Assembly (NCBI RefSeq): GCF_003334815.1
Contig: NZ_QOWO01000128.1
Length of the DNA: 557 nucleotides
Direction: 5' to 3' (one strand)
Source: Escherichia coli
GTDB lineage: Bacteria; Pseudomonadota; Gammaproteobacteria; Enterobacterales; Enterobacteriaceae
This document shows positions 58 to 231 of this stretch, in pieces. Under the pieces are notes generated by a model. It did no database searches and was not told the origin of the DNA. It saw nothing but the letters and a program-made list of their open reading frames with translations. The position numbers and the translations under genes were made by a program. Numbering within the stretch: the first letter of the stretch is position 1; each line of letters opens with the position of its first letter.

Positions 58-231
58 TCACAACCCGAAGATGTTTCACTTCAGAGTTGCGAAAATTTGA
101 GAGACTCACGAACAACTTTCGTTGTTCAGTGTTTCAATTTTCAGCTTGATCCAGATTTTTAAAGAGCAAAACTTCGCAGTGAACCTTTGCAGGTACACTC
201 TGAAGTATTTTTTATTTAATCACTACAGAGA
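58..231 (-). other. Transcribed spacer between tRNA-Ala and 23S rRNA (distal part of the 16S-23S ITS)
   Basis: Lies between the tRNA-Ala 3' end (232) and the 23S 5' end (57). AT-rich, with no ORF carrying a plausible start and ribosome-binding site on either strand. Contains the boxA-like motif and a tetraloop hairpin listed separately. Confidence 0.9.
156..168 (-). promoter_or_regulatory. boxA-like rRNA antitermination element in the spacer
   Basis: The reverse complement of 156..168 is TGCTCTTTAAAAA, which closely resembles the rrn boxA consensus (GCTCTTTAACAA), the NusB/NusE-binding element of the rRNA antitermination system. A spacer copy of boxA between the tRNA genes and 23S is a known feature of E. 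coli rrn operons. Exact extent is approximate. Confidence 0.6.

Follow-up and report, generated by a model that had tools for sequence, protein, structure and literature searches.

What does a small, perfect hairpin do in the spacer between the 16S and 23S ribosomal RNA (rRNA) genes of Escherichia coli? The 557-nucleotide (nt) stretch of contig NZ_QOWO01000128.1 that we analysed (the window) matches E. coli K-12 at 100% identity and corresponds to a 16S-23S spacer, which the neighbouring genes assign to the rrnD operon. The hairpin in question has its core at positions 110-127, in the part of the spacer between the gene for the alanine transfer RNA (tRNA-Ala) and the 23S rRNA gene. As the rRNA and tRNA genes all lie on the minus strand, this part of the spacer is transcribed from the minus strand, and all features located below are on that strand. 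A preliminary description of the sequence had arrived at the same location and strand, and had offered the GAAA tetraloop of the hairpin, a member of the GNRA class, as a possible docking site for a protein or an RNA. We find instead that the hairpin is a real, covarying helix that lies inside the predicted pairing between the 23S leader and the 23S trailer and is dispensable in some lineages. We consider it probable that it is a side branch on the leader strand of this leader-trailer (processing) helix, formed by an insert that is found only in the leader and folds on itself.

The two arms returned by a repeat finder, GAACAAC (110-116) and GTTGTTC (121-127), are 100% complementary and 4 nt apart. 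In the transcript they form a perfect core stem of 7 base pairs (bp), GAACAAC-GAAA-GUUGUUC, with the loop at 117-120, so that the stem-loop of the preliminary description was recovered both as a repeat and by folding. Folding, the Rfam StyR-44 consensus and covariation all extend this core to a full hairpin of 10 bp at 107-131, CAC-U-GAACAAC GAAA GUUGUUC-GUG, in which U128 is bulged and the closing pair, C131-G107, is supplied by the conserved flanks ..GAAAC and GAGUC... The predicted energy of the 107-131 hairpin is -10.3 kcal/mol, compared to -7.4 for the 18-mer core. The hairpin is present in both the minimum-energy and the centroid folds of the entire 174-nt spacer segment, and the pair probability of its core is at least 0.997, whether the leader is folded by itself or together with the 23S trailer.

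On its own such a repeat is weak evidence. Dinucleotide shuffling produced a perfect 7-bp hairpin with a loop of 3-8 nt in 18% of cases for the window and in 9% for the 174-nt spacer, and the figure of 0.3% obtained for a 7-bp hairpin with a GNRA tetraloop refers to a criterion picked post hoc. It is the comparative data that indicate a helix in excess of chance. We scanned one genome per species for the boxA sequence GCTCTTTAAMAATYTGGA followed after 0-6 nt by AGCTGA, which yielded at least 120 loci. Those listed, on which the counts below are based, are all gammaproteobacterial and come from Enterobacterales, Vibrionaceae, Shewanella, Pseudoalteromonas, Aeromonas, Moritella and others. In nearly all of the loci listed a hairpin lies between AGCUGA and a (G)AGUYUCUCAA block, with stems, lengths and loops that are unrelated. 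Thus the 5' arm, loop and 3' arm are GAAUAGUC, GAAA and GAUUAUUC in E. albertii, CACACA, GCUCA and UGUGUG in Enterobacter cloacae, GAUAAUAUC, ACCGA and GGUAUUAUU in Photorhabdus, and AAUCAACAA, UUUA and UUGUUGAUU in Vibrio rotiferianus, and Citrobacter has a two-tier stem of ~55 nt at this site. The same junction carries a hairpin in Enterobacterales, Vibrionaceae, Shewanella and Pseudoalteromonas and also in the reduced-genome Candidatus Steffania. Among the loci listed, the segment between the two anchors is 28-94 nt long where it holds a hairpin, and the 72 distinct segments have a median folding z-score of -4.9, with 97% of them below -2. No hairpin was found in Moritella (L021), Aeromonas popoffii (L031) and Zobellella (L064-L066), in which 10-11 nt separate AGCUGA from an AGUUCU block; Zobellella was judged by eye and is missed by the stricter downstream anchor used for the z-scores.

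Within the Enterobacterales the stem is also supported pair by pair. Because a MAFFT alignment of ten hairpins set the Enterobacter stems one column out of register, we built a covariance model of the hairpin and used it to align 31 Enterobacterales sequences. Across the 28 distinct sequences, 85.2% of the alignment cells were paired, against 30-54% when the partners were slid, and the covariation score was 0.498, against at most 0.154. Double changes were observed at nine of the ten pairs of the stem. The four pairs kept by RNAalifold in a gappy 126-column alignment are all compensatory and agree with the stem, a result that is weak when taken alone. Compensatory change had been named in the preliminary description as a check on the hairpin, and the stem came through it. 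Variants within E. coli retain the pairing as well: in rrnH and rrnG of K-12 the C-G pair that closes the loop has become U.G, and a divergent allele described below has a paired stem of its own.

Two groups of relatives show how this site varies on a finer scale. In Citrobacter, Shimwellia and Escherichia sp. ESNIH1 (L029, L071, L079, L111, L116-L119), the long two-tier hairpins carry a near-identical apical module, UUCU(U)CCGUAAUAA(A)GAA with the loop CCGUAAUA, on basal stems that differ, and the module resembles a conserved tip that has been inserted. A single genome of Photobacterium alginatilyticum (L086-L095) contains at least four alleles of the hairpin, with loops ACUA, AUCA, GUUA and UUUAC and compensating changes in the stem, and also has a second variable hairpin downstream.

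If the stem is kept, is the GAAA loop kept with it? The loop could contact an RNA receptor or a protein in the pre-rRNA, in rrnTAC or in the pre-50S particle, and its appearance favours this at first sight: the GAAA loop, the C-G closing pair and the regular stem are like those of the GNRA/receptor modules of group I and II introns and RNase P, and a GNRA-capped 7-bp hairpin is rare by chance in the shuffles described above. Variation within Escherichia also speaks for it. Among the seven K-12 operons, which include three variants of the stem, rrnB has a GAGA loop and the other six (rrnA, C, D, E, G and H) have GAAA. A divergent 8-bp allele of the E. albertii type, GAAUAGUC-GAAA-GAUUAUUC, is found, at an identity of at least 99%, in 164 of the 5,430 E. 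coli records that matched (hits H16-H23; L009 24-79), so that GNRA is kept by every Escherichia variant seen.

Outside Escherichia, GNRA identity is not conserved among the homologues of the hairpin, in which our case differs from the known modules. Among 89 distinct homologous hairpins from the loci listed, the terminal loop is GNRA in just 13 and UNCG in 11, and the rest are unrelated loops within an overall range of 3-14 nt. The GNRA cases come from Escherichia, Photobacterium piscicola, Pseudoalteromonas luteoviolacea and one Shewanella, while close relatives of Escherichia have other loops, GCUCA or UUUAU in Enterobacter and CCGUAAUA in Citrobacter. Moritella, Aeromonas and Zobellella have no hairpin to dock. 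The halves of the 11-nt GAAA receptor, UAUGG and CCUAAG, are absent from the 23S leader and trailer, and no paired receptor halves within 80 nt were found anywhere in the operon; minor-groove helical receptors are of a kind that sequence does not reveal. GNRA and UNCG are simply the most stable caps, and their scattered recurrence fits selection for stability. The loop is not a conserved feature, and recurring stable caps are what would be expected of a helix that closes quickly. We regard a docking site as rather improbable. What stands of the preliminary description is therefore the structural element of the pre-rRNA, and what does not is its emphasis on docking through the GNRA loop, given 13 such loops in 89, three lineages without a hairpin and no 11-nt receptor in the leader or trailer. 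A GNRA hairpin of textbook appearance can, it seems, be selected only for being a closed helix.

In the E. coli records that carry it, the E. albertii-type allele stands in for the K-12 type, which resembles a cassette-like replacement with compensatory changes within a single species.

Where, then, does the helix sit in the precursor? Leader-trailer helices flank both rRNAs and are universal and essential, with variable leader-leader and trailer-trailer helices in addition (PMC10250234, PMC11404451), and it is established in E. coli that cleavage of the 23S leader-trailer helix by RNase III releases pre-23S (PMC8782170). We retrieved the remainder of the rrnD operon and folded the 23S leader with the 23S-5S spacer (the trailer) by RNAcofold. 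The two strands formed 65-66 intermolecular pairs at -117.6 kcal/mol, and the predicted pairing extends from 23S helix H1 and CUUCGG:CCGAAG outward to the 3' edge of boxA. At its proximal end, CUUCGG-GUUGUGA-GGUUAAGC (50-70) pairs with GCUUAACCUUACAACGCCGAAG at the 23S 3' end, in a helix that includes H1 and the region of the RNase III site. Further out, a segment that we call B, UCUCUCA (98-104), lies 3' of the hairpin and pairs with UGAGAGA of the trailer (probability 0.86-1.0), and segment A, GCUGAAAAUU (136-145), pairs with GAUUUUCAGC in the 23S-5S spacer ~2.9 kilobases (kb) downstream (probability 0.82-1.0). At the distal end, UCA (147-149) pairs with UGA and AAUCUG (152-157) with CAGAUU, so that this stretch (147-157) overlaps the 3' end of the spacer boxA, the NusB/NusE-binding antitermination element that we read from the sequence as UGCUCUUUAAAAA at 156-168.

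The hairpin is predicted to be the one sizeable branch formed by the leader alone. It starts 24 nt past boxA, with the RNase III site ~42 nt beyond it, and in the cofold an unpaired GAAA (132-135) joins it to segment A; this junction is part of UUGAAAC, which is near-invariant in the Enterobacterales alignment. In the trailer the partners of B and A are one nucleotide apart (UGAGAGA-A-GAUUUUCAGC). The ~25 nt between the leader segments thus have no trailer partner and fold on themselves, giving a three-way junction between segments A and B.

This arrangement is not peculiar to E. coli. Leader and trailer were both available for 11 further operons, and their cofolds have the same layout with 60-101 intermolecular pairs. 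A hairpin flanked by trailer-paired leader segments was predicted in eight other genera; operons with this layout include those of Enterobacter, Citrobacter, two Photorhabdus species, Vibrio, Shewanella and Pseudoalteromonas. Pairing of segment A is predicted in those genera and also in Moritella, in which the hairpin is missing and the segments merge into one continuous leader-trailer duplex across the site. Differences between taxa are compensated, as in these examples: GUCUCUC:GAGAGAU in Enterobacterales corresponds to GUUCUC:GAGAAC in Vibrio, where both strands of the leader-trailer segments are two nt shorter, and the pair beside AAGCUG is U-A in E. coli and A-U in Photorhabdus. Our literature search on E. 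coli spacer structure turned up no usable published drawing of the hairpin. The structure as a whole agrees with published leader-trailer helices (among them those of Gemler et al. 2024) in its complementary 23S flanks, in cleavage by RNase III and in the conservation of structure over sequence, and the hairpin behaves like published leader branch helices, which vary between clades and even between operons. It departs from them in extent, since the published 23S helix is ~30 bp and the cofolds here give ~65 bp that reach boxA, with the hairpin as a branch point.

A side branch of this kind may do useful work. The hairpin would fold immediately on emergence from RNA polymerase and would tie up the leader-only insert until the trailer has been transcribed, that is, for the 2.9 kb of 23S or about half a minute, a figure that follows from the rate implied by ~20 s for 17S (Chaban et al. 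preprint). With the insert closed up in this way, its mispairing with the nascent 23S or with the adjoining parts of the leader would be avoided, and segments A and B would stay available and side by side, so that the trailer could zip onto them. Meanwhile rrnTAC bound to boxA would hold the leader at the polymerase; such a complex has been proposed to hold the leader strand for delivery to the trailer, and rrnTAC raises the efficiency of processing by RNase III (PMC8632103; preprint 10.64898/2026.03.17.712431). Selection would act on the closed helix and not on sequence, length or loop, with GAAA as one of several interchangeable stable caps. After the RNase III cut, the hairpin would leave with the excised leader fragment, which would be the metastable RNA known as StyR-44, and would then be degraded. 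We infer, then, an anti-misfolding and register-keeping role followed by the fate of a by-product. In silico, replacing the 3' arm by its complement made segment B less available in the leader alone (unpaired probability 0.19, down from 0.41), which lends slight support to such a role.

Several points weigh against this explanation. Deleting the hairpin in silico left leader-trailer pairing unchanged (66 pairs, same probabilities), and three of the lineages among the loci listed (Moritella, Aeromonas and Zobellella) are without it, so any contribution of the hairpin must be small or conditional. The structures are thermodynamic predictions that omit the 2.9-kb body of the 23S, proteins and folding kinetics, and the distal segments beside the hairpin rest on our cofolds and a few taxa, set against a 23S leader-trailer helix that is usually given as ~30 bp (PMC8782170). 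The alignment used for covariation came from the covariance model, was thus shaped by the structure, and leans towards the stem. The scan pattern fixed boxA and AGCUGA, which makes covariation impossible to show at those positions, and taxon sampling was biased. Finally, retention of GNRA in all Escherichia variants seen would not be predicted by a model that is purely blind to sequence.

Another reading is that of a tolerated insertion with no function, in which pairing is kept since unpaired inserts are selected against and the hairpin brings no benefit. It would account for the spread in length of the segment (28-94 nt), the full turnover of its sequence, the presence of several alleles in one genome of Photobacterium alginatilyticum, the three hairpin-free lineages and the unchanged pairing after deletion in silico. 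Less easily explained by it are the strong maintenance of pairing and the recurrence of a hairpin at the exact junction across Enterobacterales, Vibrionaceae, Shewanella, Pseudoalteromonas and Candidatus Steffania. It departs from the favoured explanation solely in whether the hairpin contributes positively, and it is difficult to distinguish an insert that is neutral and tolerated from one whose fold helps. We consider it unlikely.

The comparison with Rfam bears on what becomes of the hairpin. The window matches RF01830 (StyR-44) at 164-65 on the minus strand with 106.9 bits (E = 7e-18), where the family's gathering threshold is 54 bits. The match takes in the whole model (positions 1-107 of 107), and the same spacer segment is present in all seven K-12 operons. 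The 110-127 hairpin is the central stem-loop of the StyR-44 consensus, whose pairs coincide exactly with those of the 107-131 hairpin; in the cmscan alignment, CACUGAACAAC / GAAA / GUUGUUCGUG falls on the <<<-<<<<<<<____>>>>>>>>>> element with zero non-canonical pairs flagged there. The element is thus already known on two counts: it is StyR-44's central stem-loop, and it is one of the variable leader-leader helices that are typical of the 23S processing structure. This identity, the 10-bp stem with its bulged U and the position as a side branch in the leader-trailer helix go beyond the preliminary description.

StyR-44 (S. Typhi npcRNA 44) was cloned as a 109-nt RNA that lies ahead of 23S in each of the seven operons of S. 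Typhi and E. coli, and northern blots of both species detected a discrete RNA of ~109 nt that is regulated by growth phase (PMC2943607). The same RNA was recovered as sYJ118, which gives a northern signal in Salmonella and Klebsiella, rises 8-fold with tigecycline or tetracycline in Salmonella and rises also in Klebsiella (PMC3511261), and StyR-44 was detected by RNA sequencing (RNA-seq) in Pectobacterium (PMC4710047). From these observations and from the existence of a curated Rfam family, the hairpin could be taken for the core of a genuine trans-acting small RNA (sRNA) with a regulatory role of its own, separate from rRNA maturation. The authors of both experimental papers, however, allowed for a by-product: those of StyR-44 could not exclude a metastable intermediate of maturation or processing (PMC2943607), and the sYJ118 paper likewise raised the possibility of a processing by-product (PMC3511261).

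Our data lean the same way. The StyR-44 match stops 7 nt short of the mature 23S 5' end (57), with GUUGUGA (58-64) in between. Cleavage by RNase III gives a precursor with 7 (or 3) extra nt in front of the mature 23S 5' end, and because the match ends 7 nt before 23S, the 3' end of the StyR-44 fragment would resemble an RNase III cut. The body of the RNA corresponds to the leader strand of the predicted duplex. No target or phenotype has been reported for it, and complete turnover of the hairpin sequence between genera is unlike a regulator that bears a seed. As for the local outer stem in the Rfam model, it was predicted for the isolated 100-nt fragment alone and was absent from the spacer fold and from the fold with the trailer. 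For these reasons we give an independent sRNA little credence.

Our picture of the region shares with the Rfam family the full-model match, the central stem-loop and the place directly upstream of 23S in rrn operons. It differs in that Rfam describes a stand-alone gene with a local outer stem, whereas here the nucleotides of that stem are predicted to pair with the 23S trailer. Moreover, the family at its gathering threshold misses Photorhabdus, Vibrio and other groups, yet the position of the hairpin is conserved there. The hairpin carries little weight as a discovery; its modest value is as a worked example, in which the StyR-44 "sRNA" is most sensibly taken for the leader strand of the 23S processing helix. 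In the model, an outer stem (89-98 and 136-145) pairs GCUGAAAAUU with AAAUUUUCGC. Since GCUGAAAAUU is also predicted to pair over a long distance with the trailer, this local stem is probably a competitor of the long-range structure, and in Photorhabdus and Xenorhabdus its 3' partner lacks conservation. Given the GNRA loop of every Escherichia variant seen, there is a slim chance that the Escherichia loop makes a lineage-specific contact with the leader-trailer helix, rrnTAC or an early 50S assembly factor, or else that the excised StyR-44 fragment, stabilised by the hairpin, has a trans role under the stress of ribosome-targeting antibiotics.

A hairpin close to boxA also calls to mind the nut sites of phage lambda, where boxB has a GNRA-like loop, a pentaloop, and lies ~8 nt downstream of boxA. 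By analogy, the hairpin and the boxA (156-168) located 24 nt upstream of it could recruit an antitermination factor. The rrn elements are arranged as boxB-boxA-boxC, with a boxB that can be dispensed with, and the host has no N protein; a second such boxB-boxA-boxC set lies upstream of 23S (PMC10250234, PMC8632103). The rrn boxB thus precedes boxA, and our hairpin instead follows it at 24 nt and has a tetraloop. A boxB-like hairpin with a GCAA loop is already present upstream of boxA (171-206), and loop, stem length and even presence of the downstream hairpin are not conserved. We hold a nut-like boxB to be extremely unlikely. The upstream element is itself worth describing: it is a compound hairpin with its GCAA tetraloop at 187-190, immediately 5' of boxA and hence at the position expected for the spacer boxB, so that the rrnD boxA stands between two GNRA-capped hairpins. 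Operons of the tRNA-Glu type have a different sequence upstream of boxA.

The window also allows a comparison with the 16S side of the operon. The stretch just after 16S (432-489) supplies the trailer side of the 16S leader-trailer helix. When cofolded with the boxA-boxC region of the rrnD leader, it gave 53 intermolecular pairs that reach boxA and contain a 26-bp run against the boxC region (UUUAUCAGACAAUCUGUGUGGGCACU). In both the 16S and the 23S leader, then, boxA is followed within 10-20 nt by a leader segment that pairs with a distant trailer. The 16S boxC leader strand, which boxA-bound rrnTAC is proposed to deliver to its trailer, is predicted to pair in an uninterrupted 26-bp run with no branch hairpin, whereas the 23S leader strand is interrupted by the hairpin. 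If the extended pairing up to boxA is true, the 23S layout would be the same as the 16S layout, with boxA directly followed by the leader strand of the processing helix. Such a layout would matter for current models where it is the antitermination complex that brings the leader strand to the trailer.

The remaining contents of the window are in keeping with a ribosomal spacer. On the minus strand are the 3' end of the 16S rRNA (495-557), tRNA-Ile (350-426), tRNA-Ala (232-307) and the 5' end of the 23S rRNA (1-57), the last placed both by annotation and by a match to model positions 1-57 of LSU_rRNA_bacteria. A plus-strand version of the hairpin has no independent support because every annotated feature is on the minus strand. 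An intrinsic terminator was likewise rejected, as it had been in the preliminary description: the core stem has two G-C pairs of seven and is followed by GUGAGUCUCUC with no U tract, and a scan found no terminator-like or promoter-like sites on either strand of the window. Ten open reading frames (ORFs) of 20-66 amino acids lie in or overlap the tRNA genes and the rRNA spacer, and none of them is meaningful.

Two other small elements deserve mention. The segment at 78-88 exists in rrnD and rrnG as a short variant, CUCUGAAGUG, and in the other five K-12 operons as a longer, ACACGAUGAUGAAUCGAAAG-type sequence for which a small hairpin of its own is possible, making this a second variable branch of the leader, nearer to the RNase III site. 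Further upstream, in the 42 nt that separate tRNA-Ile from tRNA-Ala, there is a perfect 9-bp inverted repeat at 331-351 with a 3-nt loop, which reads CAAAUUUGC-ACG-GCAAAUUUG in the RNA and is stronger than the 110-127 hairpin.

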